The notes under the pieces: generated by a model
What the model was told of the DNA's origin: nothing
The model's input: only the letters and a program-made list of their open reading frames with translations
The model's database searches: none
Part shown: positions 6,862 to 45,239 of the stretch, piece by piece
Layout of the letters: each line of letters begins with the position of its first letter
How positions within the stretch are numbered: position 1 is the stretch's first letter
Source: an uncultured Bacteroidales bacterium
GTDB lineage: Bacteria; Bacteroidota; Bacteroidia; Bacteroidales; UBA10428
DNA: 47,741 nucleotides
Reading direction: 5' to 3'
Assembly (NCBI GenBank): GCA_964416375.1
Contig: CAYQDZ010000003.1
Coordinates: 1-47,741, forward strand
Program-made: the position numbers and the translations under genes

Positions 6862-6897
6862 TCTTACTTAACCAATAGCATTAAAGAGATTTTAAAA

Positions 6898-23908: not shown

Positions 23909-23909
23909 T

Positions 23910-25812: not shown

Positions 25813-25824
25813 TTTAAGAAGGAT

Positions 25825-28317: not shown

Positions 28318-30279
28318 ATGGATCTTTCGGTAATTATAGTAAATTATAATGTCAAGTATTTTCTTGAACAATGTCTTCACTCGGTTTATAAATCGATGGA
28401 GGGCATCAGGGGTGAAGTTATTGTAGTGGATAACAATTCTGTTGACGGTTCCTGTCAGATGGTCAAAGAGAAATTTCATGATGTAATACTCATTCGGAAC
28501 AAAAAAAATTGCGGATTTTCTAAAGCAAATAATCAGGGATTTGAAATTTCTAAAGGTAGATATGTTCTGATCCTTAATCCTGATACCATAGTTCAGGAAA
28601 ATACATTTTCCAAATGCATAGGTTTTATGGATGGTCATCCCGATGCGGGAAGCCTTGGAGTTAAAATGATTGATGGCAAAGGCAATTTTTTGCCTGAGTC
28701 GAAAAGATCATTACCAACACCATTGGTTTCTTTTTTCAAAATATTCGGATTATCAGTCCTTTTTCCCAAATCAAAATTATTTGGCAGATATCATCTGGGC
28801 TATCTTGATAATAATAAGATAAATAAAATCGAGATATTACCGGGAGCTTTCATGTTTATAAGAAAATCAGTACTTGAAAAAACCGGGTTTCTTGATGAAA
28901 CATTTTTTATGTATGGCGAGGACATTGATCTGTCCTATAGAATTATCCTTGCCGGCTATAACAATTACTACTTTCCCGAAACCACCATCATTCACTATAA
29001 AGGAGAGAGCACCAAGAAAGGAAGTATAAATTACGTGATGGTTTTTTACAAAGCCATGATCATATTTGCCAGAAAACATTTTTCTGCAAAAAACGCTTTT
29101 CTGTTTAGTTCTCTGATCAATCTTGCGATCTATTTAAGGGCATCATTTTCCATCTTAAGAAGATTTATTTTGAAAATCATTGTTCCGGTTTGTGATGCCA
29201 TTTTAATTTATATTGGTTATTATTTTCTTGAACCTTTTTGGGAAAACATTAAGTTTGGTCAGAAAAATTACTACCCTGAAGAATACCTCAGGTATATAGT
29301 ACCTGCCTATATCCTTGTGTGGTTTTTTTGTTTGTATATATCCGGAGCATATGAAAAACGGGCCCGGTTCATTGATTTGTTGAAAGGAATATCTTTGGGA
29401 ACAATTGTTCTGCTCTTGATTTATGCGCTACTTCCTGAAAGCTTAAGATATTCGAGGGCACTTATTTTATTGGGCACAGGATGGGTGACCATTTCTGTTT
29501 TTTTCACACGCCTTACAGTAGGGCCTCTGTTTAATACTGTAAAACTATCATTTCGCAAGCAAAAAAAGAGAATTGTTATTGTCGGATCACCTGAAGAGAG
29601 CAAAAGAGTATTCTCCATAATGAAAAAAGTGAATACTATTGTTCCATCTCTGGTTGGCTTAGTAGGAAGCGATGATAAACTGAAAGATAATCTCTATATG
29701 GGAGATCTTTCACAACTGAATGAGATTGTGAAGATAAACCGGATAGATGAAATTGTATTCTGTGCTAAGGATATACCTTCTCATAAAATAATTCAAACCA
29801 TGTTAAGTGTAAGTGATACATCTCTGGATTTTAAGATTGCTCCTCCCGAGAGCTTGTCAATTATAGGCAGCAGTTCCATTAATACGGCTGGCGAGTTGTA
29901 TGTTGTTCATTTCAACTCTTTGAGTCATAGTTTTGCCAGGAGAAAAAAACGCCTATTTGATTTCACGGTTTCCATTGTACTGATAATCTCTCTTCCGGTC
30001 ATTTTATTCTTAGTAAAAAATCCTTTGGGATTGATCAGGAATATTACCCTGGCAATCTTAGGATTAAGAACCTGGGTAGGATATTTTAAGACAAATGAGG
30101 ATCATGTGAATGCTCTTCCTCAGATTAAGCAAGGCATTCTTACTCCTATACCTGAATCAAGGAATAAAAACCTAAGCGATGAAACCATAAAGCGTATGAA
30201 TTTGTTGTATGCAAAAGATTACAAAATGAATACTGATTTATCCATACTATTTCGGGATATCAGATATATTGGAAGATAA
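28318..30279 (+). CDS. Family-2 glycosyltransferase fused to a WbaP-like polyprenyl-phosphate glycosylphosphotransferase scaffold with a truncated catalytic domain
   Basis: 653 aa. N-terminal GT2 (LSVIIVNYNVKYFLEQCL...VIVVDNNSVDGS...GFSKANNQG...ILNPDT...FMYGEDIDLSYR). Then about 4 TM helices. Then a CoA-binding-like Rossmann region (KKRIVIVGSPEESKRV...LVGLVGSDDK...YMGDLSQLNEIV...IDEIVFCA). Then KKRLFDFTVSIVLIISLPVILFL, a Bac_transf-type re-entrant helix, with only about 85 further residues to the stop. Confidence 0.75.
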   Translation: MDLSVIIVNYNVKYFLEQCLHSVYKSMEGIRGEVIVVDNNSVDGSCQMVKEKFHDVILIRNKKNCGFSKANNQGFEISKGRYVLILNPDTIVQENTFSKCIGFMDGHPDAGSLGVKMIDGKGNFLPESKRSLPTPLVSFFKIFGLSVLFPKSKLFGRYHLGYLDNNKINKIEILPGAFMFIRKSVLEKTGFLDETFFMYGEDIDLSYRIILAGYNNYYFPETTIIHYKGESTKKGSINYVMVFYKAMIIFARKHFSAKNAFLFSSLINLAIYLRASFSILRRFILKIIVPVCDAILIYIGYYFLEPFWENIKFGQKNYYPEEYLRYIVPAYILVWFFCLYISGAYEKRARFIDLLKGISLGTIVLLLIYALLPESLRYSRALILLGTGWVTISVFFTRLTVGPLFNTVKLSFRKQKKRIVIVGSPEESKRVFSIMKKVNTIVPSLVGLVGSDDKLKDNLYMGDLSQLNEIVKINRIDEIVFCAKDIPSHKIIQTMLSVSDTSLDFKIAPPESLSIIGSSSINTAGELYVVHFNSLSHSFARRKKRLFDFTVSIVLIISLPVILFLVKNPLGLIRNITLAILGLRTWVGYFKTNEDHVNALPQIKQGILTPIPESRNKNLSDETIKRMNLLYAKDYKMNTDLSILFRDIRYIGR

Positions 30280-30285
30280 TTCATA

Positions 30286-31617
30286 ATGAGTAAGATAGAG
30301 CTTATACTTCCCGCTATGGGAGAGGGCATAATTGAGGCAACCATTACAAGATGGCTTGTAAAAGTGGGTGACATGGTGCAGGAGGATGATTCTTTACTCG
30401 AAGTTGCAACAGATAAAGTTGATTCAGAAATACCATCTCCATCATCGGGAGTGGTTTCGCGCATTATTTATCGTGAAGGAGAAATACCAAAAGTAGGAGA
30501 GGTACTTGCAATCATTGAAAGTGAGTTTGAAAAAGAAGAAGAACTTTCTGAAAAATCGCGTGTACCGGGTGCATTAGTTCAAACAATTGATGATACAGAA
30601 AACAGATTAGAGGAAATTGCAGATAAACCACGACAAACAGAAAAACATAAGAAGAAAAAAGAAAAAATTATTGACAACAATCTGCTGATAACTCCTTATA
30701 TCAGGTTCTTTGCCAAGAATAGGGAAATTTCATTTGATGAACTAAGACAAATTAAAGGGACCGGACTTGACGGGCGAATTACGAAGGCAGATTTAAATTC
30801 TTACATCAAATCCGGAAGAAACTTTGAGAAAATTGAAAACAAACAGATTTCAGATGACCAGAATGTAAAAATTTCTCAAGAGGAGACCATGAAAAACGAT
30901 TATACTCTCCGGCCTGGTGAAGAGTTTATCGAAATGGACCGTACCCGAAAATTAATAGCTGATCATATGGTACGCTCCAAGCGTATTTCTCCACATGTCA
31001 CATCCACGGTTGAAATCGATGTAACCTCACTTGTGAATTGGAGAAACAGCAACAAGGATGGTTTTTTAAAAAAGCAGGGAATCAAACTGACCTTTACCCC
31101 GGTTGTAGTTTTAGCTGCCGTAAAAGCATTAAAAGATTTTCCGGGCATTAATATTTCTGTTGCCGGCAACTATATCATACAGAAAAAATACATCAATATT
31201 GGGGTAGCCGCAGCATTACCTGATGGCAACCTTATTGTTCCGGTAATTAAAGACGCTGATGCATGTAATTTTGTTAGTCTGTCTCATCAGGTAGCTGATT
31301 TAGCAAAACGAGCAAGGGAAAGCAAATTGAACCCAACCGATATAAAGGGAGGCACATTTACCATCACCAATATGGGGCGTTACAATAACATTTCAGGTAC
31401 TCCGATAATAAATCAACCTGAGGTAGCCATATTGGCTGTAGGTGCAATAAAGAGAAAACCGGCGGTTGTATCAATCCATGATATTGAGACGATTGGAATA
31501 AGGGATATTATGGTATTATCACTTACTTACGACCATAGAGTTGTTGATGGTTCACTAGGAGGTTCATTTGTACAAACTTTAGGAAAATATTTATCTGAAG
31601 AATTGCCTGATTTTTAG
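30286..31617 (+). CDS. 2-oxoacid dehydrogenase complex E2 component (dihydrolipoamide acyltransferase)
   Basis: 443 aa. Lipoyl domain (..LLEVATDKVDSEIPSPSSG..), E3-binding domain (..LITPYIRFFAKNREISFDELRQIKGTGLDGRITKADL..) and catalytic domain (..LSLTYDHRVVDGSLGGSF..). Substrate specificity cannot be assigned. Confidence 0.9.
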   Translation: MSKIELILPAMGEGIIEATITRWLVKVGDMVQEDDSLLEVATDKVDSEIPSPSSGVVSRIIYREGEIPKVGEVLAIIESEFEKEEELSEKSRVPGALVQTIDDTENRLEEIADKPRQTEKHKKKKEKIIDNNLLITPYIRFFAKNREISFDELRQIKGTGLDGRITKADLNSYIKSGRNFEKIENKQISDDQNVKISQEETMKNDYTLRPGEEFIEMDRTRKLIADHMVRSKRISPHVTSTVEIDVTSLVNWRNSNKDGFLKKQGIKLTFTPVVVLAAVKALKDFPGINISVAGNYIIQKKYINIGVAAALPDGNLIVPVIKDADACNFVSLSHQVADLAKRARESKLNPTDIKGGTFTITNMGRYNNISGTPIINQPEVAILAVGAIKRKPAVVSIHDIETIGIRDIMVLSLTYDHRVVDGSLGGSFVQTLGKYLSEELPDF

Positions 31618-31679: not shown

Positions 31680-31708
31680 TTGTGCATAGCAAATTATTTT
31701 TAAATTTG
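31680..31708 (+). promoter_or_regulatory. Candidate Bacteroidota-type promoter for the first PorE-like gene
   Basis: TTG at 31680-31682, an 18-nt spacer, then TAAATTTG at 31701-31708, an exact TAnnTTTG match, 27 nt upstream of the ATG at 31735. Confidence 0.5.
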
Positions 31709-31734: not shown

Positions 31735-34700
31735 ATGAGAATTTATTATTGGTTCCTGTCTCTCCTTGTCATTCTGTCTTTAACGTATTTAAAATCAGCT
31801 GCTCAGGAAGAAATAGACGCGAAGAGATTGTTTGTTGAAGCAGAATCTTATTTTCTTTTTGAAGAATATAAGGATGCCTTGCCATTGTATCAGAAGATAG
31901 CACGTGTTGAACCTATGAATTACAATGTTCAGTATAAAATAGGGATTTGTTATCTTAATGATACCTACCTGTCGGACAAATCAATAAAATATTTTGAAAA
32001 ATCTTTAAAAAATGTAAACATACATTTCAAACAGAATAATTTTAAGGAAAAAGGAGCCCCTCTTGAAGCACATTATTATCTTGGCAAAGCATTTCATAAG
32101 AACAATATGTTGGACAAAGCCATCGAAAGCTTCCAACGTTTTAAAAACCTTGCGGATCCTAAAGATTTTGACATTAGTATAGTTGATGAAGATATTGCGG
32201 CTTGTCAACTGGCCAAAAAAATGCTCAGAGATCCTATTTTTTTTTCTCCTAAAAATAGTCAAAGCCCCATAAATTCCAGGTTTGAAGAAATCAATCCGGT
32301 TGTGTCCGGAGATGGCAAAACCTTGATTTTTACCAGAAGACTTCAGTTTTACGATGGAGTATTCATCAGCAAAAGAAATAGTGAGGGAACTTGGTCCGAA
32401 CCGGTTAACCTTACGCCTGATTTCGGATGGGATGGAAATTCATATACCTGTGGAATATCTTATTTCGGAGATGAAATATTTGTTTACCGTAGCGATAATT
32501 TTGATGGTAATATTTATTCCAGCAAACGTGAAGGTAATCGCTGGGGCCGTTTAAAAAAATTGGATGACAATATCAATACAAAATTCTGGGAATCACATGC
32601 TTCACCCTCCATTGATGGACAATATCTGTATTTTACATCAAATCGTGCCGGGGGATATGGAGGCCTTGATATTTATAAATCCAAACGCTTACCAAAAGGT
32701 GATTGGGGTCCCGCAGTAAACCTGGGGCCAGTTATTAATTCTCCTGGCAATGAAAACACTCCGTTTTTAAGCAATGAAGGATATGCTTTGTTTTTTAGTT
32801 CACAGGGACATCCAACAATGGGAGGCTATGATGTTTTTATAAGCAATTTAAAAAGTGATGGCACATGGAGCAAACCACAAAATATGGGTTCCCCTTTGAA
32901 TACAACAGCTGATGAATTATTTTATAACCCAATGGGAGTGAATTCTTTTGGCTTCTTTGCATTGTATGACGAGTCTACTACTCAGGGTTTGCTGGATATT
33001 TACGAAATTGAAGTTTATAATGAATTTATTCCCCGAACCTTCCAGGTTCAGGGACGATTAATAGTAAAGAATGCAGACTCCAGGTTCTATAAAAAGCTAA
33101 CAGCCAAAATTATAGATGCCAAATCAAAAGAAATAATTGCCGGGCAAAAAATTGGGGACGATGGGATAATTTCTCTTTCAGCTACTCAGGGAGAATATAT
33201 ATTGTTAATTGAAGGACCGGAAATTGAAACCTACCGGAAAAACCTGAACTTATCGGTAAATCAACCCGATGGCCTGGTAATTTTGCCTTCCATTTCATTA
33301 GATAAAGGTGCGGTTACAACTGTTCCTATTGCCATTACAACTCCATCAAAATCAAAGATCTTTGCTAAAAGTGATTTTTATGCAGTGAATGATTCCGGAG
33401 TTGTTTCTATTGATTTAATCGTACCTAAAGGATCTGATCTGGGGGTGGATATATCAATGGATGATAGTCTTATTTTTACGGAATCAATTGAATCTGTAAG
33501 AAAAAGGTTTACTTATTTCTATAAGCCAAGACCTGGCGAGAATATATTGAAATTCACGGCCACTGATCTGGATGGGGATACTTCCTCCACTGAAGTTATC
33601 GTCACCTATTATTTGCCTTTGCCAACTGAGACAGAAGTTGGATTGCAGAAAATAGAACCGGCAGTTTCCATCTATGTAAAATCATTTGATATGATTTCGG
33701 AAGGAGCATTGCAGACGTATTTGCATAAAATTGAAATGAATGATTTTGAAAATTTTTCCGATCTCTATCAGCACCTTATTGAAGTATCTGATCAGGAAGG
33801 TTTTACCAGAGAAGATGTCAACAAAATGTATTCTATCTATTTTTCTCAAAAGGACAAGCAGTTGTTCAATACAGATTTTATAAGCTATTATTCTGAACAG
33901 GATAGCGATTGGGATGCACTATTTGACAGTTCAACCATACCATTAATTTATATTCAAACTTTGTTAAAAGAAGAGCTGATTTCAAAGAAAGACATGCAAG
34001 CTACGCTGCTTTCCATGGTGTCTGATGATTTTGAAGATGGAAATGTCTTATACGCATTCTTATCAGGATTTCACAAGGATACAGCGAAAACCTATTGGGA
34101 TGATCTGGATATCTCCGGGTCGGTTCAGGCCTGGGAGGTGATGTCTGACAATTTGGGTGATACGGATGCAAATTCTTTGTTGCAACTTGCATCTACAACA
34201 GAGGAGTTACACTTTTTCTTTCAGAATTTGCTGGTTGCATCCTCCGGTAATTTGAATGAATACCTGGCAGGCATGCAATTTGAGACTCTTTCCATTGAAA
34301 ACTCAATTGATCTGCTTAGTCATTTGTTCGGAGCTGTACCAGAAGAAAACTTTAGCTATGAAGAACTTATTGAAGCGCTTGAAAAAGCTTCTCTGAACAG
34401 GAAATATTATCTGAACATCTTTAATGAAGTATTAACAAACAATGCAAGCGGCACATTAAAATCGCAACTTCTATTACTTAATCTTGATGAAAAGAATATT
34501 TATACTTACGAAAATTTGCTTAAATATCTTGTAGAACAGTCGCAATATAACAACTATTCAAGAGAGGAAATTTACAATTTGTTACTGGAGTTAATAGGGA
34601 TTACTGATGTCAATGAATTTTCAGAAAAAATTAAATCGTATAATATTAAATCTGTCAATAAAGCTCTTTCCGATACATCATTGAAACATTTCTCAAATCC

Positions 34701-34944
34701 TTATGAGCTTTTACAATATCTGCTTATTGCCACTCAGGATTATGATTTTACCGAATCAGATATTAATAACCTGCTCATAAGAATGATTTTAGAACGTGGT
34801 TTGTCAGATAGTTTAAGCAAAAGATATGACAGCAAAGAAAAAAGCATATGGAAGAATAAGAAGTTCCTGACAACCATAATTTTAGTAAATATTGTAATAT
34901 TGATATTTATTATTCTCATAACTCGAAGAAGAAAAAACAATTAA
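31735..34944 (+). CDS. PorE-like paralog 1: TPR + PD40 beta-propeller + CRD-like + Ig-like + long helical-repeat region + C-terminal membrane anchor
   Basis: 1069 aa. Signal peptide. Family blocks YKIGICYLND, APLEAHYYLGKAFHKNN, INTKFWESHASPSIDGQYLYFTSNRAGGYGGLDIYKS, GPVINSPGNENTPFLSNEGYALFFSSQGHPTMGGYDVF, NTTADELFYNP. CRD-like TFQVQGRLIVKNADS.... C-terminal FLTTIILVNIVILIFIILIT followed by RRRKNN. Confidence 0.8.
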   Translation: MRIYYWFLSLLVILSLTYLKSAAQEEIDAKRLFVEAESYFLFEEYKDALPLYQKIARVEPMNYNVQYKIGICYLNDTYLSDKSIKYFEKSLKNVNIHFKQNNFKEKGAPLEAHYYLGKAFHKNNMLDKAIESFQRFKNLADPKDFDISIVDEDIAACQLAKKMLRDPIFFSPKNSQSPINSRFEEINPVVSGDGKTLIFTRRLQFYDGVFISKRNSEGTWSEPVNLTPDFGWDGNSYTCGISYFGDEIFVYRSDNFDGNIYSSKREGNRWGRLKKLDDNINTKFWESHASPSIDGQYLYFTSNRAGGYGGLDIYKSKRLPKGDWGPAVNLGPVINSPGNENTPFLSNEGYALFFSSQGHPTMGGYDVFISNLKSDGTWSKPQNMGSPLNTTADELFYNPMGVNSFGFFALYDESTTQGLLDIYEIEVYNEFIPRTFQVQGRLIVKNADSRFYKKLTAKIIDAKSKEIIAGQKIGDDGIISLSATQGEYILLIEGPEIETYRKNLNLSVNQPDGLVILPSISLDKGAVTTVPIAITTPSKSKIFAKSDFYAVNDSGVVSIDLIVPKGSDLGVDISMDDSLIFTESIESVRKRFTYFYKPRPGENILKFTATDLDGDTSSTEVIVTYYLPLPTETEVGLQKIEPAVSIYVKSFDMISEGALQTYLHKIEMNDFENFSDLYQHLIEVSDQEGFTREDVNKMYSIYFSQKDKQLFNTDFISYYSEQDSDWDALFDSSTIPLIYIQTLLKEELISKKDMQATLLSMVSDDFEDGNVLYAFLSGFHKDTAKTYWDDLDISGSVQAWEVMSDNLGDTDANSLLQLASTTEELHFFFQNLLVASSGNLNEYLAGMQFETLSIENSIDLLSHLFGAVPEENFSYEELIEALEKASLNRKYYLNIFNEVLTNNASGTLKSQLLLLNLDEKNIYTYENLLKYLVEQSQYNNYSREEIYNLLLELIGITDVNEFSEKIKSYNIKSVNKALSDTSLKHFSNPYELLQYLLIATQDYDFTESDINNLLIRMILERGLSDSLSKRYDSKEKSIWKNKKFLTTIILVNIVILIFIILITRRRKNN

Positions 34945-34949
34945 CTTAT

Positions 34950-37013
34950 ATGAAATATTTCATACGATTTACCTTAATACTATTATGGGAGGTTTTATTT
35001 ATTACAAACCTTTTTAGCCAAATATGGCTCTCAAATAAGGATATTTTTGATGATGCAGAAGAATATCTCGATGCTGATGAATACGTGGAAGCTTTGCCTC
35101 TGTTTATTCTTCTTGAGAAAAAGGAAGTAATAAATGCCAATATATCTTATAAAATTGGTACGTGCTACCTGAATATCAGGGGAAAGAAGGATAAGTCAAT
35201 TCCGTATCTTGAAGATGCCTGTCAAAATATCACCTTTGATTACAAGAATTCAATTGAGGAGACAGCCGCTCCTGTGAAAGCTCTTTTATTGCTCGGAGTA
35301 GCGCACCGCATAAATAATGAGCCAAAGAAAGCAATGGAAATTTTCGAATTATTGAGGGACACGCTTGCAAACAGAGACATGGATGCAATTGTCGATATGC
35401 ATATCAAGCGATGCGAGCATGCGGTTCTGCTTGCTGCATTTCCGGGTGAACCCAGAACAGAGAAGCTGCCGGCTCATATAAACAATGAATTTTCAAATTA
35501 TAATCCCGTATTGGTTGATCATGATAAGGTATTGTATTATATGGAAGAACTTAAGTTCTATGATGCGATTATGCGTGTAGAAAATGAAGATGATGTATGG
35601 GGCAATCCTACGAATCTGACCCCAAAAATCGGAAGTGATGGAGATCATATTGTTGTTGGGGCTTCTTCTGATGGTAATGCACTGTTGTTGTATATCTATA
35701 AAGTATTAAAAGCTGGTGAAATATACACAACCAGATTAAATGATGATGGCTGGTCAAAGTTGGAACCACTGAATGAGAGCATTAATACAAAATATCATGA
35801 AACGCATGCCAGCTATTCATTTGATGGCAAGACACTGTATTTTACCAGCAATCGACCTGGTGGTTATGGAGGTTTGGATATTTACATGTCAAAGCTTGAT
35901 GAAAATGGAAAGTGGGGGCCTCCTGTAAACCTCGGTCCGGATATCAATACACCTTTCAATGAAGAAACTCCAATCATGAATGTTGATGATGAGATTCTTT
36001 ATTTTAGCTCGCAGGGGCATCTGAATATGGGTGGATATGATATTTTTCATGCTCAGCGTAAAGGAGAGAACGAATGGAGACAACCGATTAATATGGGTTC
36101 TCCTGTTTCTACAACAGATGATGACTTGTTTTATTTTCCTTTGGAAACAGGAATGTCAGGATTGATGTCTCGCTTGGAGGAACCCGTTACAGGAGCCTAC
36201 GACATTTACAGATACAACAGTATGGTGTTTGCAAATTCCCCCCGGTTTTCTGTCAGAGGAAAATCAAGTACAGCAGACAGTTCCAATTATAAAGATCATG
36301 ATGTGTTGGTTATAAATAACGAAACTTCAGATACTCTGATTATAAAAAATCCTAATCCTGATGGAAGTTATGAGTTCTTATTGCCGGCTGGAAATTTTGC
36401 TGTGGTTGTGGTTGATGATCAGGGAGTATCCAGTGAAGACAATGTGGTTTTTAAAGATGGAGATCCGGATAGGGAATTATTAACTTCTGCTCAGGTTGAG
36501 CCTGTCGATAGTTTGGCAGAAGAAAGTTTGGCAGAAGAAACAGTTGGAGAAGAGAGCTTGGCGCAAGAGACCGATGCAGAAGTGACTGTGCCTGCAGATA
36601 CCGTACAATTAAGACATCTGCTTTTTGGTTTTGATAGTTACAAATTACCATCAAATTGTCAGGCGTATCTTAATGTAATTAAAGCGATGATGGAGAAACA
36701 CGCCTCTCTGGTGATCGGGATTGTTGGATATACTGATGAAATAGGCAGCGAAAGTTACAATATCCATTTATCCAAACTTCGGGCCGAGATGGCTGCAAAG
36801 TACATTATATCTGATAAGATTGATAAAGAAAGAGTTAAAGTTATTGCAAGGGGAGAAGCCAATCCTGTTGCAATGAACAAAAATGCTGATGGAACTGATA
36901 ATCCCGATGGAAGACATTATAATCGCAGAGTTGAGCTGGTCCCTGAAAGCAAAATACCGGGAGTTATATTTACCTTTAAAATTGAAGTGCCTGAAGCTCT
37001 TTTGTATAAATAG
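34950..37013 (+). CDS. PorE-like paralog 2: TPR + PD40 beta-propeller + CRD-like + OmpA_C peptidoglycan-binding domain
   Basis: 687 aa. Family blocks YKIGTCYLNI, APVKALLLLGVAHRINN, INTKYHETHASYSFDGKTLYFTSNRPGGYGGLDIYMS, GPDINTPFNEETPIMNVDDEILYFSSQGHLNMGGYDIF, STTDDDLFYFP. OmpA_C at about 36610-36945: LLFGFDSYKL...IVGYTDEIGSESYNIHLSKLRAEMAAKYI...GEANPVA...NRRVELV. Confidence 0.85.
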   Translation: MKYFIRFTLILLWEVLFITNLFSQIWLSNKDIFDDAEEYLDADEYVEALPLFILLEKKEVINANISYKIGTCYLNIRGKKDKSIPYLEDACQNITFDYKNSIEETAAPVKALLLLGVAHRINNEPKKAMEIFELLRDTLANRDMDAIVDMHIKRCEHAVLLAAFPGEPRTEKLPAHINNEFSNYNPVLVDHDKVLYYMEELKFYDAIMRVENEDDVWGNPTNLTPKIGSDGDHIVVGASSDGNALLLYIYKVLKAGEIYTTRLNDDGWSKLEPLNESINTKYHETHASYSFDGKTLYFTSNRPGGYGGLDIYMSKLDENGKWGPPVNLGPDINTPFNEETPIMNVDDEILYFSSQGHLNMGGYDIFHAQRKGENEWRQPINMGSPVSTTDDDLFYFPLETGMSGLMSRLEEPVTGAYDIYRYNSMVFANSPRFSVRGKSSTADSSNYKDHDVLVINNETSDTLIIKNPNPDGSYEFLLPAGNFAVVVVDDQGVSSEDNVVFKDGDPDRELLTSAQVEPVDSLAEESLAEETVGEESLAQETDAEVTVPADTVQLRHLLFGFDSYKLPSNCQAYLNVIKAMMEKHASLVIGIVGYTDEIGSESYNIHLSKLRAEMAAKYIISDKIDKERVKVIARGEANPVAMNKNADGTDNPDGRHYNRRVELVPESKIPGVIFTFKIEVPEALLYK
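36510..36539 (+). repeat. Perfect 15-bp tandem duplication inside the acidic linker of paralog 2
   Basis: AGTTTGGCAGAAGAA at 36510-36524 repeats at 36525-36539 and encodes SLAEE-SLAEE. Degenerate further copies (TVGEE, SLAQE) run to about 36575. Confidence 0.9.
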
Positions 37014-37139
37014 GTACTGAATGTAACTAACCTTAGTGACGCAGCAGGCTGTATTCCATTTTTTTTTATTAATTTAATCATGTGTTTACACGGAACAAGA
37101 TTGTTGATAGTGTTATCTGTTTTTTTCGTGTTATTGACG

Positions 37140-37147
37140 TAATTTTG
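37140..37147 (+). promoter_or_regulatory. Candidate -7 box (TAATTTTG) for paralog 3
   Basis: Exact TAnnTTTG match, 18 nt upstream of the ATG at 37165. No good -33 TTG at the canonical spacing. Confidence 0.35.
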
Positions 37148-37164
37148 AAAAAAATGCCAACCTG

Positions 37165-39018
37165 ATGAAAAAGTTGATTTTTACTTTCACTTGTAATTTT
37201 CTGATTGTATTTTGTTCTTATGCTCAGCGGAGCGAAGCTGAAATAGCATTGAAAGAATATTTTTCTGATGCGGAGTATTTTTTGGCTCAGGAGTTTTATG
37301 TTGATGCTCTCAGTGATTATTATCAGGTATATAGAAGAGGGTATGAAGAAAATGCAAACATCAACTATAAAATTGGGATTTGTTATCTGAATATTTACAG
37401 TCAAAAACAGAAATCTATTGAATACCTTGAAAAAGCAAAAGCTTATGTTTCTCCTAAGTATCGCGAAAGCAGTCTTAAGGAAAAAAATGCTCCCATCGAT
37501 GTTTATCTTTATTTGGGGAATGCTTATCGTATAAATAACAGGGTGGAGGATGCAATTTCGTCCTATAATGAGTATAAAAAATTATTGCCCGAAGAAGAAA
37601 CGAATTTGCATAGATATGCTGATCAACAGATTGAGGCCTGTAATGTTGCCAACGAATTTATGAAGAATCCAATTGATCTTGTTTTTGAGAACCTGGGACC
37701 TGCTATTAATAAAAGCAATGAAAACTATAAAGCTGTTGTATCGGGAGATGGTTCAACTCTTGTTTATATGCATCGGCTTCCTTTTTATGATGCAGTTTAT
37801 TTTTCAAAAAATGAAAATGGCAATTGGACAGAACCTGAAAATATAACCTCACAAATTATGTCGGACGGGGACCAGTTTGTTACTTCTCTTTCATATTATG
37901 GCAAAGTACTATTTCTTACAAAAGAAGATGAGTTTAACAGCGATCTGTTTATAAGTCAGTATGTTGATAACAGGTGGACTAAATCGGAACCATTAGGTTC
38001 AGGCATTAATTCAAAGTATTGGGAATCTCATGCTTCAGTTTCCAAAGATGGGAAAACACTTTATTTCACATCCAATCGTAGAGGTGGCAATGGAGATATG
38101 GATATTTATGTATCTAAGCTTAACGAAGTCGGGGTGTGGGCGCCGGGCATTAATTTAGGATCGGATATAAACACAGAGCTCAATGAAGATACCCCCTTTA
38201 TTACAGAAAATGGACAAACACTATTCTTTAGTTCCCAGGGATTTACAAGCATGGGCGGTTATGATATTTTTAAATCTGAACTGAAAAATGACAGCACCTG
38301 GTCAATTCCTCAAAATCTGGGTTATCCAATCAGTACTACTGACGATGATTTATTTTATTTTCCCTGGAAAGATGGAGAAATAGCCTATATGGCAAGAATA
38401 GAGGAAGATGGTTATGGAGCTACAGATATATATAAAGTTACTTATCCTGTTATCATCGATGAGACTATCACAAAACAGGATCAGGATGAAACTATGAAAA
38501 AACAAGAAGTGGTTGAATCTCCTGTAGTACCATTGGCTGATGTTACCGACAGTGCAGAAGTTGATAAGGAAGTTGAATTAGTTGTTGTACCTGAAACAAA
38601 GGCAGTTGAAATATCGCCTGTCTTTTTTGGTTTTGATAAATCAGTAGTCACTGAGAAGAGTAAAGATAATTTGGATGTACTGATTAACTTACTTAATGAT
38701 TATAAGGATATCAGGATTGATTTGCTGGGTTATACTGATCCATTGGGCCCGACTGAGTATAACTTGAAATTGGCAATGAAAAGAGCTTCTGCTGCAATGA
38801 ACTACTTAATTGATCACGGAATAAATGCTGAACAGTTAAAATCAATAGGAAAAGGAGAAGTTGATTTTATAGCCATCAATACAAATCCGGATGGATCAGA
38901 CAATAGTGAAGGTCGAAAATACAACCGAAGGGTGGAGTTTGAGGTCATAGGGCTTGATAATAATGGTTTGATTATCAAACGAATTGACCCTGTTCCTGAG
39001 CATTTAAAAATGCCTTAA
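37165..39018 (+). CDS. PorE-like paralog 3: TPR + PD40 beta-propeller + linker + OmpA_C peptidoglycan-binding domain
   Basis: 617 aa. Family blocks YKIGICYLNI, APIDVYLYLGNAYRINN, INSKYWESHASVSKDGKTLYFTSNRRGGNGDMDIYVS, GSDINTELNEDTPFITENGQTLFFSSQGFTSMGGYDIF, STTDDDLFYFP. OmpA_C at about 38615-38945: VFFGFDKSVV...LLGYTDPLGPTEYNLKLAMKRASAAMNYL...NRRVEFEV. Confidence 0.85.
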   Translation: MKKLIFTFTCNFLIVFCSYAQRSEAEIALKEYFSDAEYFLAQEFYVDALSDYYQVYRRGYEENANINYKIGICYLNIYSQKQKSIEYLEKAKAYVSPKYRESSLKEKNAPIDVYLYLGNAYRINNRVEDAISSYNEYKKLLPEEETNLHRYADQQIEACNVANEFMKNPIDLVFENLGPAINKSNENYKAVVSGDGSTLVYMHRLPFYDAVYFSKNENGNWTEPENITSQIMSDGDQFVTSLSYYGKVLFLTKEDEFNSDLFISQYVDNRWTKSEPLGSGINSKYWESHASVSKDGKTLYFTSNRRGGNGDMDIYVSKLNEVGVWAPGINLGSDINTELNEDTPFITENGQTLFFSSQGFTSMGGYDIFKSELKNDSTWSIPQNLGYPISTTDDDLFYFPWKDGEIAYMARIEEDGYGATDIYKVTYPVIIDETITKQDQDETMKKQEVVESPVVPLADVTDSAEVDKEVELVVVPETKAVEISPVFFGFDKSVVTEKSKDNLDVLINLLNDYKDIRIDLLGYTDPLGPTEYNLKLAMKRASAAMNYLIDHGINAEQLKSIGKGEVDFIAINTNPDGSDNSEGRKYNRRVEFEVIGLDNNGLIIKRIDPVPEHLKMP

Positions 39019-39111
39019 GAATTTTATAGGATTAATTATACTATTACAGACAGGTTTGCATCTCAAATGAACTCTTAATAAATTGAGTTACATTTTAATA
39101 GCCTTTTTTTT

Positions 39112-39119
39112 TATTTTTG
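39112..39119 (+). promoter_or_regulatory. Candidate -7 box (TATTTTTG) for paralog 4
   Basis: Exact TAnnTTTG match. It contains the TTG (39117) the ORF track used as start, which argues for the ATG at 39141. Confidence 0.35.
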
Positions 39120-39140
39120 AACCAATCAAAATTGCACTCA

Positions 39141-40454
39141 ATGAAAAGGTTAATTTTTTGCCTGATAGGAATACTTTTATTTTGCTTTGATAATGCTATA
39201 GTATCTGGCCAGAATCAAAAAGCAGTTGACGAAAACTTCAAAGAAGGAGAATATTTTTTTTATCGGGGAGATTATACTGACGCAGTGGGTTTTTACTTAA
39301 AACTTGTTGCCATCGATTCTCTCAATGCAAATTATAATTTTAAGGTTGGTGAATGTTATCTGAATATTCCTTCAAAAGAACCTTTAGCGATCCCTTATTT
39401 TGAGAAAGCTTTAAAAAATATTGTACCGAAGAATAAATATAAGAAAAGATCACAGGATGAAGTAAATGCTCCTCTTCATACCTATTTCTACCTTGGGAAT
39501 GCATATCGAATTAATAATCAATTGGATAAGGCACTGGAAAATTATCTGAAATTTATGGATTCTCCTTTTTTCTATGGGTACTACAATGTCGATATTGTTG
39601 AGCGTGAAATTAAATCGTGTGAAAGAGCAAAAATAATTCAGGACGCACCCATGGCGTATGAAAAAATTAATCCTGGAGAGGCAATTAATACAAGTTATGT
39701 GGAAGAAAGGCCAGTAGTATCCGGCGATGGAAAAACACTAGTATTTATAAGGCGTTTGAAATTTTACGATGCAATATTTTATTCCGTTTGGGATCATGAC
39801 AAATGGCGTCTGGCCGTGAACATTAATCCTGAAATTTTATCTGATGGCGAATTTTACCCTACGGGCTTATCCTGCGATGGAAATCATTTACTCTTGGTAA
39901 AGAAAGAATCCGAAACCAGCACCATATATATTTCTCATCTGCAGGAAGGTACCTGGTCCAAAGCGGTGCCCATGGATAATAATTTAAATTCAGCCTCATC
40001 AGAGATTCATGCAAGTTACAATAAGGCCGGAGATGCAGTTTATATAACGAGTAACCGGGCAAAGAGCAAAGGAGGTTACGATATCTTTCGATCTAAATTA
40101 ACTTCCAAAGGAACCTGGAGCAAACCCAAAAACCTGGGAAAGACAATTAATACAAAATTCAACGAACAGGGTGCTTATAGTTTTGCCGTTCCAGGTGTGT
40201 TGTTTTTCTCTTCTGAGGGACATTATAATATGGGAGGGTATGATATATTTTATAGCAGGAAAGTGGGAAAAAAATGGGCCATACCAGTAAATATTGGCTA
40301 TCCCATTAATGATACACGTGACAATTTATTCTACTGTCCTGCGAATAATCTCAGAGAAGGATATTATGCTATTGAAGACAATGAAGGATATGGTCAAACT
40401 GATATTTTTCTGATCAGAATAAAGGAAGATACTATATTGAATTTTGAGGAATAA
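39141..40454 (+). CDS. PorE-like paralog 4: TPR + PD40 beta-propeller only, no wall-binding domain
   Basis: 437 aa from the ATG at 39141 (MKRLIFCLIGILLFCF...). Family blocks FKVGECYLNI, APLHTYFYLGNAYRINN, EIHASYNKAGDAVYITSNRAKSKGGYDIFRS, VLFFSSEGHYNMGGYDIF, NDTRDNLFYCP. The protein ends right after the propeller. It is the most divergent blade set of the five. Confidence 0.8.
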   Translation: MKRLIFCLIGILLFCFDNAIVSGQNQKAVDENFKEGEYFFYRGDYTDAVGFYLKLVAIDSLNANYNFKVGECYLNIPSKEPLAIPYFEKALKNIVPKNKYKKRSQDEVNAPLHTYFYLGNAYRINNQLDKALENYLKFMDSPFFYGYYNVDIVEREIKSCERAKIIQDAPMAYEKINPGEAINTSYVEERPVVSGDGKTLVFIRRLKFYDAIFYSVWDHDKWRLAVNINPEILSDGEFYPTGLSCDGNHLLLVKKESETSTIYISHLQEGTWSKAVPMDNNLNSASSEIHASYNKAGDAVYITSNRAKSKGGYDIFRSKLTSKGTWSKPKNLGKTINTKFNEQGAYSFAVPGVLFFSSEGHYNMGGYDIFYSRKVGKKWAIPVNIGYPINDTRDNLFYCPANNLREGYYAIEDNEGYGQTDIFLIRIKEDTILNFEE

Positions 40455-40457
40455 TTC

Positions 40458-42176
40458 ATGAAAATCGATGAGGCATTCATTGCAAAATTGAAAGCTTTTC
40501 AAAAATACCATAGATTTTGGTGTGTATTTCTAGCCTGTTTGCTATGGATGACAATCTCAAACGGACAGGCTACAAATGATCCTAAAGAAGATTTCCTTTA
40601 TGGTGAATATTATCTGGAACAATATAAGTACAATGAGGCTTTGAGCTTTTATCTGTCCTCTCTTAAACATCAACCTGAGAACAGCAATTTGAATTATCGT
40701 GTTGGACAGTGTTACCTGAAAATTGTGGGTGAACAGCACCAAGCTTTGCCATACCTGAAAAAAGCCATTCATGAGATCAATGAAAACTATGTGGCTGGTA
40801 AATACAAAAACAGCGGAGCTCCTATTGAAGCCTGGTTATTTCTGGGAGATGCTTATCACAGAGAAAACAAGCTGCTCGACGCTTCTTATGCATATCATAA
40901 ATACAAAGAATTAATTGGAGATACCGATAAAGAGAAGACTAAATTAATTCATGATCGGATTATAGCCCTGGGCATTTCAAATGAATATCAGAGAACCGAA
41001 GATACAGTTCGGATCATTAATCTGGGGCAAACTATAAACTCACGATTTTCCGATTACAATCCTGTTTTAAGTGGTGATCAGATGGTATTGGTCTATACAC
41101 AATATTGGGAATCATATGACAGAATCATGATATCCAGGAGGTCACCTGATGGCTGGACTGAACCCATTGAGATCAATGGCCAGATCGAATCTTCCGGGAA
41201 CTGCTACACTTCGGCGATTTCTTATTATGGGACTGAGCTATACCTTATAAAAAACGTTGAAAACAACTACGATATTTATGTATCTGAAATGAAAGACCGG
41301 AAGTGGGAGCCGATGAAACCACTGTTGAACAAAATAAATACCCGTTACCATGAATCAAGTGTATGCATAAGTTCCGATGGGTATTATTTATACTTTGCAA
41401 GCAATAGACCGGGAGGCGAAGGAGGATTTGACATTTATCGTGCCAATAAAGAGGAAGGCGAATGGAGCAATGTTGTGAACTTAGGACCAATTATTAATAC
41501 AGGACAAAATGAGGAAGCGCCTTATATAACAATGGATGGCTCGATATTGTATTTTAGTTCCAATGGACATGAAACGATTGGTAATATGGATATTATATAT
41601 TCGGAAATCAGTGAAACAGGAGGCTGGAAAGATCCTTATAATATAGGCGCCCCGATAAACACAACAGAAGATGATCTGTTCTACATATATTTTAATAACA
41701 CGAGTACCGGATATTTATCCCGTGATATGGCAGAAGGATATGGAAAGAATGACTTATACAGGGTTCAGACCGGCGAGGATCCGGTATTTGCATTTAATGA
41801 ACTGGACTTTTTAGAAACAAAATACGTTGATAAAGGCGAGATTGAAACTGACAATATAGCATCTTCTATCACCTATACCTCAAATGAAGGTTTGGCTGCT
41901 GAAACAGCAGACTACATTTTTGAACCGGATTCTATACCTACTTATACCATCCAGGTAATGGCCTTGAAAAAACCTATTGATATGGAGAAGTTAGATCTGT
42001 CTCACCTCATCGTATCATCCGGGAATGATGGTCTGAACAGGTATACTTATGGTCAGTATATCGGTTGGTCAAAAGCCTTGTTATCGTTGTATGACATCAG
42101 AGAATCCGGATTTCCTGATGCATTCATCAGGAATATAGATACGATTGAAAATTATGCGGGAGAAATAAGCAGATAA
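40458..42176 (+). CDS. PorE-like paralog 5: TPR + PD40 beta-propeller + linker + SPOR domain
   Basis: 572 aa. Family blocks YRVGQCYLKI, APIEAWLFLGDAYHRENK, INTRYHESSVCISSDGYYLYFASNRPGGEGGFDIYRA, GPIINTGQNEEAPYITMDGSILYFSSNGHETIGNMDI, NTTEDDLFYIY. C-terminal SPOR-like YTIQVMALKKPIDMEKLDLSHLIVSSGNDGLNRYTYGQYIGWSKALLSLYDIRESGFPDAFI at about 41935-42150. Starts 4 nt after the paralog 4 stop. Confidence 0.8.
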   Translation: MKIDEAFIAKLKAFQKYHRFWCVFLACLLWMTISNGQATNDPKEDFLYGEYYLEQYKYNEALSFYLSSLKHQPENSNLNYRVGQCYLKIVGEQHQALPYLKKAIHEINENYVAGKYKNSGAPIEAWLFLGDAYHRENKLLDASYAYHKYKELIGDTDKEKTKLIHDRIIALGISNEYQRTEDTVRIINLGQTINSRFSDYNPVLSGDQMVLVYTQYWESYDRIMISRRSPDGWTEPIEINGQIESSGNCYTSAISYYGTELYLIKNVENNYDIYVSEMKDRKWEPMKPLLNKINTRYHESSVCISSDGYYLYFASNRPGGEGGFDIYRANKEEGEWSNVVNLGPIINTGQNEEAPYITMDGSILYFSSNGHETIGNMDIIYSEISETGGWKDPYNIGAPINTTEDDLFYIYFNNTSTGYLSRDMAEGYGKNDLYRVQTGEDPVFAFNELDFLETKYVDKGEIETDNIASSITYTSNEGLAAETADYIFEPDSIPTYTIQVMALKKPIDMEKLDLSHLIVSSGNDGLNRYTYGQYIGWSKALLSLYDIRESGFPDAFIRNIDTIENYAGEISR

Positions 42177-42177
42177 T

Positions 42178-42714
42178 ATGATCAGCAAGAAGATGCAAAT
42201 AAAGCTTAGAGCTCTTGAGCCCGGAGATATTGATTTACTTTATACATGGGAGAATGATAAACAAGTTTGGCAGGTGAGCAACACGATAACGCCATTTTCA
42301 AAATTCATCTTACAAAAATACCTTAACAATTCGCATCTTGATATATACCAGGCAAAACAGCTTAGGTTGATGATTGATATTTCAGAAGGAAAAAACTGGC
42401 GGACTGTTGGAACAATTGATCTTTTCGATTTTGATCCCTTTCACCTTAGGGCAGGAGTTGGAATTCTCATAGGAGATGTTTCTGATAGAAATAAAGGAAT
42501 TGCTACATTGGCACTTAAGGAGTTGATTCACTATGCTTTTTCAATCTTAAACCTCCATCAATTGTACTGTAATATACAATCTAAAAATAGCGCAAGTCTG
42601 AATATTTTTAAAAAAGCCGGGTTTCACATCATCGGAACAAAAAAAGAATGGTTGAAAACCCATGAAGGTTTTATGGATGAAGTTATACTTCAACTCATCA
42701 ATTCAAACGATTAA
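42178..42714 (+). CDS. GNAT-family N-acetyltransferase
   Basis: 178 aa, ..IKLRALEPGDIDLLYTWEND...GVGILIGDVSDRNKGIATLALKELIHYAF..LNLHQLYCNIQSKNSASLNIFKKAGFH.. (acetyl-CoA binding R/Q-x-x-G-x-G/A-like region). Its ATG is 2 nt after the paralog 5 stop. Confidence 0.85.
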   Translation: MISKKMQIKLRALEPGDIDLLYTWENDKQVWQVSNTITPFSKFILQKYLNNSHLDIYQAKQLRLMIDISEGKNWRTVGTIDLFDFDPFHLRAGVGILIGDVSDRNKGIATLALKELIHYAFSILNLHQLYCNIQSKNSASLNIFKKAGFHIIGTKKEWLKTHEGFMDEVILQLINSND

Positions 42715-42841: not shown

Positions 42842-44425
42842 ATGACATATAGATCAGAGAAGTATAAATATTTGTTTCTGACATTCATATGTCTCTGGTC
42901 TTTAAATTCTCATGGCCAGAGTCTTTTTGAATTACAAAAATACGTTGATGAAGCAGACATATTAGCAGTCGATAAAGCAATAATCGAAATACAAGAAGCC
43001 GATAAATTGATGCAGGTGGCAAATATTTATTTTAATGAAGCGATAGAGTTGCAATCAAATGATAAGCTTGACGAAAAAGCCATAAAGACTAAGATAACTA
43101 AAGCTAAGGACAAAGCACTCTCAATGCAAATACAGGCAGATAAAATGTATTCTATAGCATACCAAACATTGTATGAGATATGTCAGAGAAATCTACAAAC
43201 ATTAGACACGATTAAATCTGGAGATTTTGATGGTTACGTCAAAACAGCTGAGAATATGATTAATAATGCTTATGCAAATAGAAAAGAAGCTGCAGGTATA
43301 AATGATCCTTATGAAAAAGCAACATTGTTAAATGACGCGGCAGGGATGGAAAATGCAGCTATTGAAAATATGATTTTTGCATTTAAAGCTCAATCCGGTG
43401 AAACTACTATATTAAATAGATCAGATCAGGTTTCAGAAGAAGACTTTAAATATCAGTTGGAAGTTCCATATACACATAAAATTGTTCAGGTAAGTGAAAA
43501 TCTGGCGATTGATCAATCGATCGTTAAAAAATATGAGGATTATGTAACAAATGAATCTATCCCTAATCCTATAATGGTAACAAGAGAGGGGGTGGTAGGT
43601 CTATCTGAAGTAACTATTGATCAGGCAAGAACATTACTTCTTGAGAATCCAACGGGAAATATTTACGCAAACTATGGCGATTACGGAATTGCACAACCTG
43701 AATTGGCAGAGCCGAATTCAAAAATTTCTTCTGAAACCAAAGAATTTACAGAAAGTGACCAAAGAGGAGTTTCATATCAAGATGATAATAGAGAGCTTAT
43801 TTCTGCAATAGAAAAAAGCAATCAATCGAGAGAAGCTTTTGATATAAGCACTGTAACACAATATACGGGTATCAGATTTATGGTTCAATTGGCGGCAAGC
43901 AGAATTCCTCTTACGCGAAGTCAGGTATGGGCAATATATCCTGGAAATGCAACAATAGAAATTATATATGAGGATAGATGGTATAAATATCGGCTTACCG
44001 GATTCAGACTGTTTTCTGAAGCAGATCGTGTAGCAAATGAGTCGGGAGTTGAGGATGTCTGGGTGTTAGCCAAGTATAATGGAAGCTCAATAAGCGTTAC
44101 AGAAGCCAGGGAAAGAACGCGGGTGACGGAAGCTGATGTAAATCGACAAGGGAGACAAATTATTGAAAATGAAATCGACTATTATATACAGATCATGGCT
44201 TCACAAGTAAGATTATCAGAACGTGAAATGAAATCTTTACATGGTTATTCGGATAATTGCAGGGAGATTATTGAAGAGGGTTGGTTCAAGTATCAGGTGT
44301 ATGCTGGTACAGATTTTAAAATGGCCCTGTCATTAAGAATTGAGATCGCTGGAGAAGCATTTATTGTAGCTTACAAAGCCGGATCAAAGCGAAATATAAT
44401 TCAAGCACCAATCCAAAAAAAGTAA
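42842..44425 (+). CDS. Secreted coiled-coil protein with two C-terminal SPOR-like domains
   Basis: 527 aa. Signal peptide ..YLFLTFICLWSLNSHGQ. Helical Ala/Lys/Glu-rich N-terminal half. SPOR-like units GIRFMVQLAASRIPLTRSQ...WYKYRLTGFRLFSEADRV...VWVLAKYNG (about 43870-44085) and YYIQIMASQVRLSEREMKSL...WFKYQVYAGTDFKMALSLR...AFIVAYKAG (about 44180-44395). Confidence 0.7.
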   Translation: MTYRSEKYKYLFLTFICLWSLNSHGQSLFELQKYVDEADILAVDKAIIEIQEADKLMQVANIYFNEAIELQSNDKLDEKAIKTKITKAKDKALSMQIQADKMYSIAYQTLYEICQRNLQTLDTIKSGDFDGYVKTAENMINNAYANRKEAAGINDPYEKATLLNDAAGMENAAIENMIFAFKAQSGETTILNRSDQVSEEDFKYQLEVPYTHKIVQVSENLAIDQSIVKKYEDYVTNESIPNPIMVTREGVVGLSEVTIDQARTLLLENPTGNIYANYGDYGIAQPELAEPNSKISSETKEFTESDQRGVSYQDDNRELISAIEKSNQSREAFDISTVTQYTGIRFMVQLAASRIPLTRSQVWAIYPGNATIEIIYEDRWYKYRLTGFRLFSEADRVANESGVEDVWVLAKYNGSSISVTEARERTRVTEADVNRQGRQIIENEIDYYIQIMASQVRLSEREMKSLHGYSDNCREIIEEGWFKYQVYAGTDFKMALSLRIEIAGEAFIVAYKAGSKRNIIQAPIQKK

Positions 44426-44444
44426 TCACTTAAAACCTAATGGT

Positions 44445-45224: not shown

Positions 45225-45239
45225 ATAACCAATTACTTA

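Follow-up and report, generated by a model that had tools for sequence, protein, structure and literature searches.

A conserved tandem array of TPR and PD40-propeller paralogs with different C-terminal ends in uncultured Bacteroidales

The closest described relatives of the proteins considered here are PorE and CHU_0125 of the Bacteroidota and, at the level of fold, the Tol-Pal system of the Proteobacteria. PorE, whose domain order is TPR, beta-propeller, carboxypeptidase-regulatory-like domain (CRD) and OmpA_C, is an outer-membrane lipoprotein (PMC7192894); neither its OmpA_C domain nor the residues with which this binds peptidoglycan can be dispensed with, and PorP is the probable contact of its propeller (PMC12773672). 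In Flavobacterium johnsoniae, six porP-like genes adjoin porE-like genes (PMC9143113). Deletion of the gene for CHU_0125, a TPR-PD40-OmpA_C protein of Cytophaga hutchinsonii, resulted in a weaker outer membrane and a sixfold rise in vesicle release (PMC5891637). PorE has also been proposed to act as a fused CpoB-TolB-Pal tether, and pal genes went undetected in the phylum in a 2025 survey (PMC12204202). Here we describe a tandem array of five paralogous genes, termed par1 to par5, which encode proteins with a common TPR-propeller head and different C-terminal ends. The array lies in a 47,741-nucleotide stretch of DNA, hereafter the window, from an uncultured Bacteroidales bacterium (contig CAYQDZ010000003.1 of assembly GCA_964416375.1, positions 1 to 47,741, forward strand). 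A preliminary description, made from the sequence alone, knew of no characterised system of this composition, and our literature searches likewise found no paper on such an array, which is common in uncultured Bacteroidales but uncharacterised.

One head and five C-terminal ends

The array consists of five consecutive open reading frames (ORFs) on the + strand: par1 (31735-34944, 1069 aa), par2 (34950-37013, 687 aa), par3 (37165-39018, 617 aa), par4 (39141-40454, 437 aa, with a TTG at 39117 also open) and par5 (40458-42176, 572 aa). As the preliminary description had recorded, only 5 nt separate par1 from par2, 3 nt separate par4 from par5, and 1 nt separates par5 from a downstream gene encoding a GNAT acetyltransferase. 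The head common to all five proteins comprises approximately 430-440 residues, made up of a signal peptide, a TPR region and a PD40 propeller; when the five heads were aligned, identities to par3 ranged from 36 to 41%, and 68 columns were invariant. Pfam PD40 was matched in all five paralogs (E-values from 4e-18 to 2e-5), with PF07676 scores of 65.3, 44.8, 55.4, 25.0 and 59.7 bits for par1 to par5, each above the threshold of 20.9, and the Pfam TPR families gave weak matches. The sequence blocks that had been quoted as invariant hold as a consensus, from which two members deviate: par4 reads FKVGECYLN and has a degenerate blade motif, and par5 reads CYLK and FASNR.

Each of the five proteins begins with a hydrophobic signal sequence and a small-residue site followed by Gln (AAQ, FSQ, YAQ, SGQ and NGQ, respectively), and cleavage before this Gln by a signal peptidase of type I appears likely from a reading of the sequence. 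No lipobox was seen when the five window paralogs were read, and lipobox-like strings occurred in 11 of 288 module sequences, namely 283 orthologues and the five window copies. The Cys of the GxCYL motif (C73 of par3, encoded at 37381-37383) is invariant in the five paralogs and in an alignment of 89 par3 sequences (the window copy and 88 homologues), and a second Cys, within IEACN (C159 of par3, 37639-37641), is retained by all but one of the five paralogs and by 90% or more of the aligned par3 sequences; the pair may form a periplasmic disulfide inside the TPR domain.

An AlphaFold2 model of par3, built on the 89 sequences (predicted local distance difference test, pLDDT, 89.1), resolved a TPR domain of eight TPR-type helices (residues 24-167, following the signal peptide), a propeller (173-426), a disordered linker (431-475) and an OmpA_C domain (479-606). 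The propeller apparently has about five four-stranded blades, as counted from the strand pattern. When this model was compared with the PDB using Foldseek, the first match was TolB (E-value 1.7e-11, about 250 aligned columns, over the propeller alone), followed by the C-terminal domain of PorE (6top, 31% identity) and then by Pal/OmpA_C domains with template modelling scores (TM-scores) of up to 0.90. The par2 product has a signal peptide, TPR and propeller, a CRD-like domain, an acidic linker and an OmpA_C domain at residues 558-648, the CRD being recognised through orthologues. Pfam OmpA was matched at 55.9 bits in par2 (558-648) and at 60.5 bits in par3 (487-578), relative to a gathering threshold of 27.2, which agrees with the C-terminal architectures initially assigned to both proteins: CRD-like plus OmpA_C in the former, and linker plus OmpA_C in the latter. 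Residues D525 and R540 of par3, which are 15 residues apart, are invariant over the 89 aligned sequences, and we take this spacing to be that of the Asp/Arg pair with which OmpA-like domains bind diaminopimelic acid and peptidoglycan. The OmpA_C domains of par2 and par3 would be expected to bind peptidoglycan stem peptides.

The longest member, par1, has a signal peptide (Q24, after SAA), a TPR region (29-165) and a propeller (185-425), which were delimited from the sequence, Pfam and a structure model; beyond the head, the model contains a CRD-like sandwich (435-522), an Ig-like sandwich (548-625), a helical region (648-1020) and a terminal helix (1042-1068). This model was built on 18 sequences and has a pLDDT of 66.5. 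The C-terminal transmembrane helix, FLTTIILVNIVILIFIILIT, is encoded at 34864-34923 (residues ~1044-1063) and is followed by an RRRKNN tail. Since this helix follows an N-terminal signal peptide, it is predicted to act as a stop-transfer anchor that should hold the protein in the inner membrane. A C-terminal transmembrane helix with a basic Lys/Arg tail was present in 53 of the 63 par1-class orthologues, whose total length varies between 583 and 1414 aa. CarboxypepD_reg was matched by 13 of 37 mid-regions from par1 and par2 orthologues and the two window copies (best E-value 4.4e-6), and Big_9, a bacterial Ig family, by four of these 37. The proposed succession of CRD-like, Ig-like and helical regions and a transmembrane helix was borne out, and the reported repeat nature of the helical region was weakly supported, with hhalign probabilities of 75-88% for three pairs of segments. 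Foldseek searches with the par1 model returned generic TPR, propeller and Ig matches and none for the helical region, for which a phmmer search against the PDB also gave no match; at least 19 homologues of the C-terminal region were found by a word-index search.

The par4 product consists of a signal peptide, TPR and propeller alone, and its PD40 motifs are the most degenerate of the five. Its lack of a C-terminal module is a class property, as transmembrane, OmpA and SPOR ends were absent from all 70 par4-class orthologues. In par5, the head is followed by a linker and a SPOR domain (residues ~492-572, nt 41931-42173), which was recognised through orthologues. The window copy of this C-terminus had no match to Pfam SPOR (PF05036, threshold 21 bits) at E≤10; nevertheless, the region is conserved in orthologues, nine of 15 par5 C-termini (14 orthologues and the non-matching window copy) matched SPOR with a best E-value of 5.4e-11, and the best PDB match of the profile was the SPOR domain of CwlC (E-value 0.014). 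The SPOR assignment is consequently accepted by homology. Profile searches thus sustained the PD40, TPR, CarboxypepD_reg, OmpA and SPOR assignments of the preliminary description, the CRD and SPOR through orthologues.

Comparison with family models indicated that, by sequence, par1 to par5 belong to the PorE/CHU_0125 superfamily and are members of neither family. The PorE model (NCBIfam NF052230) gave 141.8, 175.0, 204.6, 107.4 and 140.0 bits for par1 to par5, a third or less of its cut-off of 600, and the CHU_0125 model (NF053607) gave 140.6, 185.8, 198.8, 135.5 and 157.3 bits relative to a cut-off of 620. The TolB model (TIGR02800) was matched by par2 alone, at 20.7 bits against 343, and the Pal model (TIGR02802) gave 54.8-56.0 bits against 125; the OmpA_C domain superposes on Pal (TM-score 0.90) but has no lipobox. 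The earlier suggestion of kinship with PorE and with TolB and Pal is therefore retained at the level of superfamily and fold, and set aside in so far as it implied PorE proteins proper (107-205 bits, no lipobox and no porP neighbour).

With regard to domain order, all four PorE domains occur in par2 (the CRD through orthologues), par3 lacks the CRD, and par1, par4 and par5 lack OmpA_C, in place of which they carry a transmembrane helix, nothing and SPOR, respectively. PorE is found in the same phylum, but it is a lipoprotein working with PorP, whereas the window proteins have neither a lipobox nor a porP neighbour: no PorP/SprF gene, nor one for a protein with a C-terminal domain (CTD) secretion signal, was present among the genes flanking the array in the window or among those recurring around the ~76 related loci that were clustered. 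F. johnsoniae resembles the present case in having several PorE-family paralogs per genome; those genes, however, are scattered, and each adjoins a porP-like gene and one for a type-B-CTD cargo, whilst the paralogs of the array are in tandem, lack such partners and differ in their anchors. The likeness to CHU_0125, known as an ‘OmpA-like outer membrane integrity protein’, extends beyond the shared TPR, PD40 and OmpA_C modules, in that residues 24-662 of par2 align end to end with positions 14-633 of the CHU_0125 model. The phenotype of the CHU_0125 mutant, a leaky outer membrane and more vesicles, corresponds to the function proposed below for the array, though CHU_0125 has been studied as a single gene and the array is a differentiated set.

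Relative to the Tol-Pal system, the propeller of the array is closest in fold to TolB, the OmpA_C domain to Pal and the TPR region to CpoB. Further, par1 recalls TolA in its predicted inner-membrane anchor and long helical stalk, although it is anchored C-terminally and TolA N-terminally, and Tol-Pal accumulates at septa, to which the SPOR member of the array suggests targeting. In contrast to Tol-Pal, the array is without TolQR motor genes, the TolB N-terminal domain and a lipidated Pal, and its modules are fused in single chains; TolB joins an N-terminal alpha/beta domain to a six-bladed propeller, whereas the N-terminal part of the array proteins holds the TPR region. The end of par5, and two repeats of a 527-aa protein encoded further downstream, belong to the same family as the SPOR domains of the division proteins FtsN, DamX, DedD and RlpA and of CwlC, with CwlC (1x60) the best solved match and the window copies too divergent for the Pfam threshold. 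Known SPOR division proteins carry a membrane anchor or an enzyme, while in par5 the domain is joined to a TPR-propeller head.

The head itself is part of a very large family. At E≤1e-3 a profile of the module retrieved 40,134 cluster representatives, a number that fell to 11,785 at 1e-30, and the best 149 representatives ranged from 426 to 1685 aa and ended in a transmembrane helix (87), OmpA (17) or SPOR (15). In three sequences, P0140 (1685 aa), P0142 and P0228, the profile matched 3 to 12 separate stretches per polypeptide; these may be fusions of paralogs or multi-propeller proteins.

Orthologue groups and transcription units

More than 100 homologues of par3 were found at 48-70% identity, and all of those with a source name were from uncultured Bacteroidales; a look-up of the exact par3 sequence had no match on record in public assemblies. 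Carriers of the array include assembly GCA_016935615.1 and the 5.1-Mb contig CAXXXS010000001.1. A scan of one genome per GTDB species yielded at least 575 confirmed relatives, of which the best 80 were taken as the loci for comparison, all from Bacteroidales or Bacteroidota metagenome-assembled genomes (MAGs). Every ORF of these loci was compared with the window proteins, and in 53 loci the array was uncut by a contig end. The order par1-par2-par3-par4-(par5)-GNAT was found in about 50 species-level Bacteroidales MAGs, and the observed array is well above chance. Amongst the 53 uncut loci, orthologues of par1 to par4 were present in 31 and of par1 to par5 in 12, whilst par1-par3-par4 was found in six and par3-par4 in three; par5 is thus present in about a quarter. 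A crude classification of the C-termini in 47 uncut loci gave transmembrane-OmpA-OmpA-none in 21, the same with SPOR in seven, and transmembrane-OmpA-none in six. The minimal array, par3-par4-GNAT, occurs in locus L043 on a 5.1-Mb contig without gaps; this array is without par1, par2 and the glycosyltransferase gene that generally lies upstream. Another candidate three-gene array without the glycosyltransferase or Wza (L003/L018, CP070654.1) was rejected, as runs of N flank it; this ‘chromosome’ contains 100-N gaps at 6895-6994, 14023-14122 and 21127-21226, and its gene neighbourhood is unreliable.

Relationships amongst the paralogs were assessed by distance clustering and a nearest-neighbour test on the N-terminal module. 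When the heads alone were compared, the nearest relative in another genome belonged to the same positional class for 282 of 288 sequences. On this sequence evidence the array is composed of five old orthologue groups, one per paralog, which agrees with the view that it amounts to more than simple redundancy. Recent tandem amplification and gene conversion were rejected, the sole nearest neighbours within one locus being two SPOR-ended paralogs of locus L041. This pair (L041, 13208-17451) flanks the GNAT gene, shares 47% identity and was the only lineage-specific duplication seen inside the array.

The transcriptional organisation was examined through the Bacteroidota -7 box, TAnnTTTG, scored within 100 nt upstream of each gene and present in 5% of background windows. 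In the window, + strand boxes are located 27 nt before the par1 ATG (TAAATTTG, 31701-31708), 18 nt before the par3 ATG (TAATTTTG, 37140-37147) and 22 nt before the par4 ATG at 39141 (TATTTTTG, 39112-39119), the last of these overlapping the TTG at 39117. Across loci, the box was found upstream of par1 in 50 of 63 (79%), of par3 in 71 of 84 (85%) and of par4 in 27 of 73 (37%), with a value of 38% for the upstream glycosyltransferase gene. It was rare before par2 (8%, absent in 48 of 52 loci), par5 (11%) and the GNAT gene (9%), and the frequency was 0% for the neighbouring E2 and Wza genes described below. Median gaps across loci were 14 nt for par1-par2, 18 nt for par4-par5, 0 nt for par5-GNAT and 27 nt for par4-GNAT. 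Since -7 boxes are conserved before par1 and par3 and the tight junctions are without one, this pattern suggests three transcription units, par1-par2, par3 and par4-(par5)-GNAT, and because of the same promoter pattern the ATG at 39141 is favoured over the TTG as the par4 start. The co-expression previously proposed for par1 with par2 and for par4 with par5 and GNAT accordingly gains support from spacing that is conserved and junctions that lack a conserved box, and nothing beyond these tight junctions argues for it. Scans of the window for sigma-70 promoters and intrinsic terminators gave chance-level counts and are uninformative for Bacteroidota, and a combined -33/-7 pattern had one match in the window, at chance. 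The -7 box alone was not enriched window-wide (53 observed, 60 expected), being informative by its position across loci.

Genes surrounding the array

The most constant non-paralog partner of the array is the GNAT gene (42178-42714, +), which was present in 52 of the 53 uncut loci, minimal arrays included, in translational coupling with whichever paralog comes last. It encodes a 178-aa protein without a signal peptide that resembles SpeG, PseH and RimL, and its closest solved relatives are SpeG polyamine acetyltransferases (E-value 1e-13). The next gene (42842-44425, +) encodes a secreted protein of 527 aa whose N-terminal half is helical and which contains two SPOR-like repeats (residues ~342-417 and ~444-520). 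The window protein had no Pfam match at E≤10, yet nine of 22 C-terminal repeats of this protein matched SPOR (best E-value 3.3e-5) with CwlC as the top solved match, and its designation as a double-SPOR protein was accepted through its relatives. A Wza lipoprotein (lipobox LLLTSC) and a Wzc tyrosine autokinase follow (44445-47636, +) as facultative neighbours.

The 527-aa protein was found in 28 and Wza/Wzc in 22 of the 53 uncut loci, and the three genes (42842-47636) are present or absent as a unit between the GNAT gene and a backbone of HSDR_N_2 and holA. Downstream of GNAT, or of Wzc, the genes for an HSDR_N_2 protein, the DNA polymerase III delta subunit (holA), a rhomboid protease and an AlgH-like protein recur, with the rhomboid gene lying two to three genes downstream of GNAT/Wzc in 41 related loci. 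The surroundings of the array are therefore collinear core genome, inside which the 527-aa/Wza/Wzc genes form an indel block, and a mobile island was rejected as an explanation as its flanks are housekeeping genes. Because the neighbourhood is generally collinear and the Wza block facultative, synteny by itself does not link the array to polysaccharide export, and the association with Wza/Wzc and the double-SPOR protein that had been put forward at the outset proved weak.

Upstream of the array, a GT2 glycosyltransferase fusion (28318-30279, +) was found in 50 of the 53 loci. Its GT2 domain is joined to the N-terminal portion, with membrane and Rossmann-like regions, of a polyprenyl-glycosylphosphotransferase (positions 2-280 of the 445 in the model); the final ~90 residues of the fusion resemble what would be left of the catalytic domain after trimming. 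Between GT2 and par1 lies a lone gene for the E2 component of a 2-oxoacid dehydrogenase (30286-31617), which was present in 33 and absent from 20 of the 53 uncut loci; 18 loci have a fused E1 gene at another position. Further upstream, a secreted 282-aa protein (26521-27369) is the best conserved of the block, at 65-88% identity where par3 has about 50%, and had no match in Pfam, in NCBIfam or among solved structures. It is preceded by a gene for a 232-aa protein (25810-26508), and the pair is syntenic in many loci. Just upstream of this envelope block, the region 20639-25649 encodes a 1089-aa sensor with Reg_prop/Y_Y_Y propellers and a SpoIIE/SiaA-like phosphatase and, in tail-to-tail orientation to this sensor, a hybrid histidine kinase carrying a MASE6 domain.

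A proposed envelope-stabilising set and its rivals

The reading we favour, to which a probability of about one half may be attached, is that the array encodes a motor-less, Tol-Pal-like envelope-stabilising set in which one head is combined with layer-specific anchors. We infer the localisations of the feet, the contacts between heads and partners and the physiological role, and the ‘multi-layer envelope-bridging assembly’ of the preliminary description is to be taken in the same conditional sense. According to this proposal, the old paralogs, which number four to five and belong to the CpoB-TolB-Pal-like superfamily of PorE and CHU_0125, would all be Sec-exported, apparently non-lipidated and periplasmic, and would present the same protein-binding TPR-propeller head. 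The foot of par1 would be its transmembrane helix, lodged in the inner membrane and preceded by a long stalk of helical and Ig-like parts; those of par2 and par3 would be OmpA_C domains on peptidoglycan stem peptides; par4 would have no foot, and that of par5 would be a SPOR domain on peptide-stripped glycan strands of the kind present where cells divide. For the heads, a shared partner in the outer membrane or periplasm is envisaged, or else contact with each other's OmpA_C domains in the manner of TolB and Pal; the set would in this way connect that partner to the septum and sacculus as well as to the inner membrane, with a proposed role in outer-membrane integrity and constriction. This reading draws on the domains and their structural matches (TolB, then PorE, then Pal), on the invariant D525 and R540, on the conservation of the anchor set, its order and its operon structure across species, on feet that are kept while stalks vary (583-1414 aa in par1), and on the precedents of CHU_0125 and PorE.

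Several observations weigh against it. Neither a lipobox nor a beta-barrel, and hence no outer-membrane anchor, was detected in the five paralogs; since no outer-membrane attachment is visible, the tether would need a further partner. Three separate conserved promoters permit independent regulation, and an envelope model has no part for the SpeG-like GNAT, which is cytoplasmic and constant. Synteny is a weak argument since holA and the rhomboid gene are also collinear, and the par1 model is of low confidence (pLDDT 66.5) with a helical region that has no known match. A more ambitious form of the envelope-set reading, in which the array is the Bacteroidales counterpart of Tol-Pal and couples outer-membrane constriction to division, is rather doubtful. 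In that form, par1 would be TolA-like, par2 and par3 wall-bound and Pal-like, and par5 septum-seeking through SPOR, whilst the free, TolB-like par4 would mobilise par2 and par3 by binding their OmpA_C domains.

The main rival, itself rather unlikely, is that the five are independent envelope proteins with their own ligands and no joint assembly, adjacent owing to duplication history and collinearity. Separate conserved promoters before par1, par3 and often par4 would fit such independence, as would paralogs that share 36-41% identity, the dispensability of par5, par2 and par1, each of which can be absent, and a very large module family with many C-termini (40,134 representatives; the top 149 of 426-1685 aa); but order and composition are kept in about 50 species while E2 and Wza/Wzc come and go, the par1-par2 and par4-par5-GNAT junctions are translationally tight, and the complementary anchors are kept as a set. 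It is less likely that the proteins are accessories of type IX secretion, that is, PorE paralogs each binding a PorP-like outer-membrane protein and fastening a type-B-CTD cargo to the wall, a role that has been suggested for the porE-like genes of F. johnsoniae. The NCBIfam PorE model is matched by all five, the par3 OmpA_C domain is 31% identical to that of PorE, a Por_Secre_tail protein is encoded near the array in a related MAG, and F. johnsoniae provides a precedent in its six porP-like genes beside porE-like genes (PMC9143113). Nonetheless, the scores of 107-205 bits fall well short of the cut-off of 600, there is no lipoprotein signal such as that of PorE, no PorP/SprF/CTD gene occurs among the window flanks or the recurrent neighbours of the ~76 loci, and three of the five paralogs lack the OmpA_C domain that PorE function needs.

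Equally unlikely is a role as scaffolds of polysaccharide export with the GT2 fusion and Wza/Wzc, in which the heads would resemble the TPR proteins of synthase-dependent exopolysaccharide systems. Such a role would accord with the presence of GT2 upstream in 50 of 53 loci and of Wza/Wzc and the SPOR protein downstream, both in the window and in 22-28 of the 53, and Wza, as an outer-membrane lipoprotein, could be the missing outer-membrane partner. Wza/Wzc are, however, absent from over half of the loci and part of an indel block, the minimal array of L043 is without GT2, par1 and par2, the unrelated E2 gene and a conserved promoter separate GT2 from par1, and the collinear neighbourhood includes housekeeping genes. 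Lastly, the C-terminal helix and basic tail of par1 might represent a sorting signal cut by a sortase-, exosortase- or rhombosortase-like protease. Its tripartite shape at the very C-terminus and the rhomboid gene downstream in 41 loci recall such signals; yet the orthologues have no conserved PEP, GlyGly or LPXTG motif before the helix, no sorting-signal family was matched, and the rhomboid gene belongs to the collinear housekeeping backbone, which makes this explanation highly improbable.

For outer-membrane tethering and constriction in Bacteroidota, the array brings candidates. The PorE-type head, with about 40,000 cluster representatives, appears to be a general module with interchangeable anchors, and a practical caution follows for annotation, as TPR-PD40-OmpA proteins are not all type IX secretion components and should be annotated accordingly. 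If the envelope-set reading is correct, one lineage keeps a complementary set side by side, directed to the inner membrane, the peptidoglycan peptide and the septal glycan, with one member free. As a defined gene set, the array offers specific proteins that may supply the missing links to the inner membrane and septum, and the Tol-Pal-counterpart form of this reading, if true, would provide for division-coupled constriction in a phylum in which pal is reportedly absent (PMC12204202).

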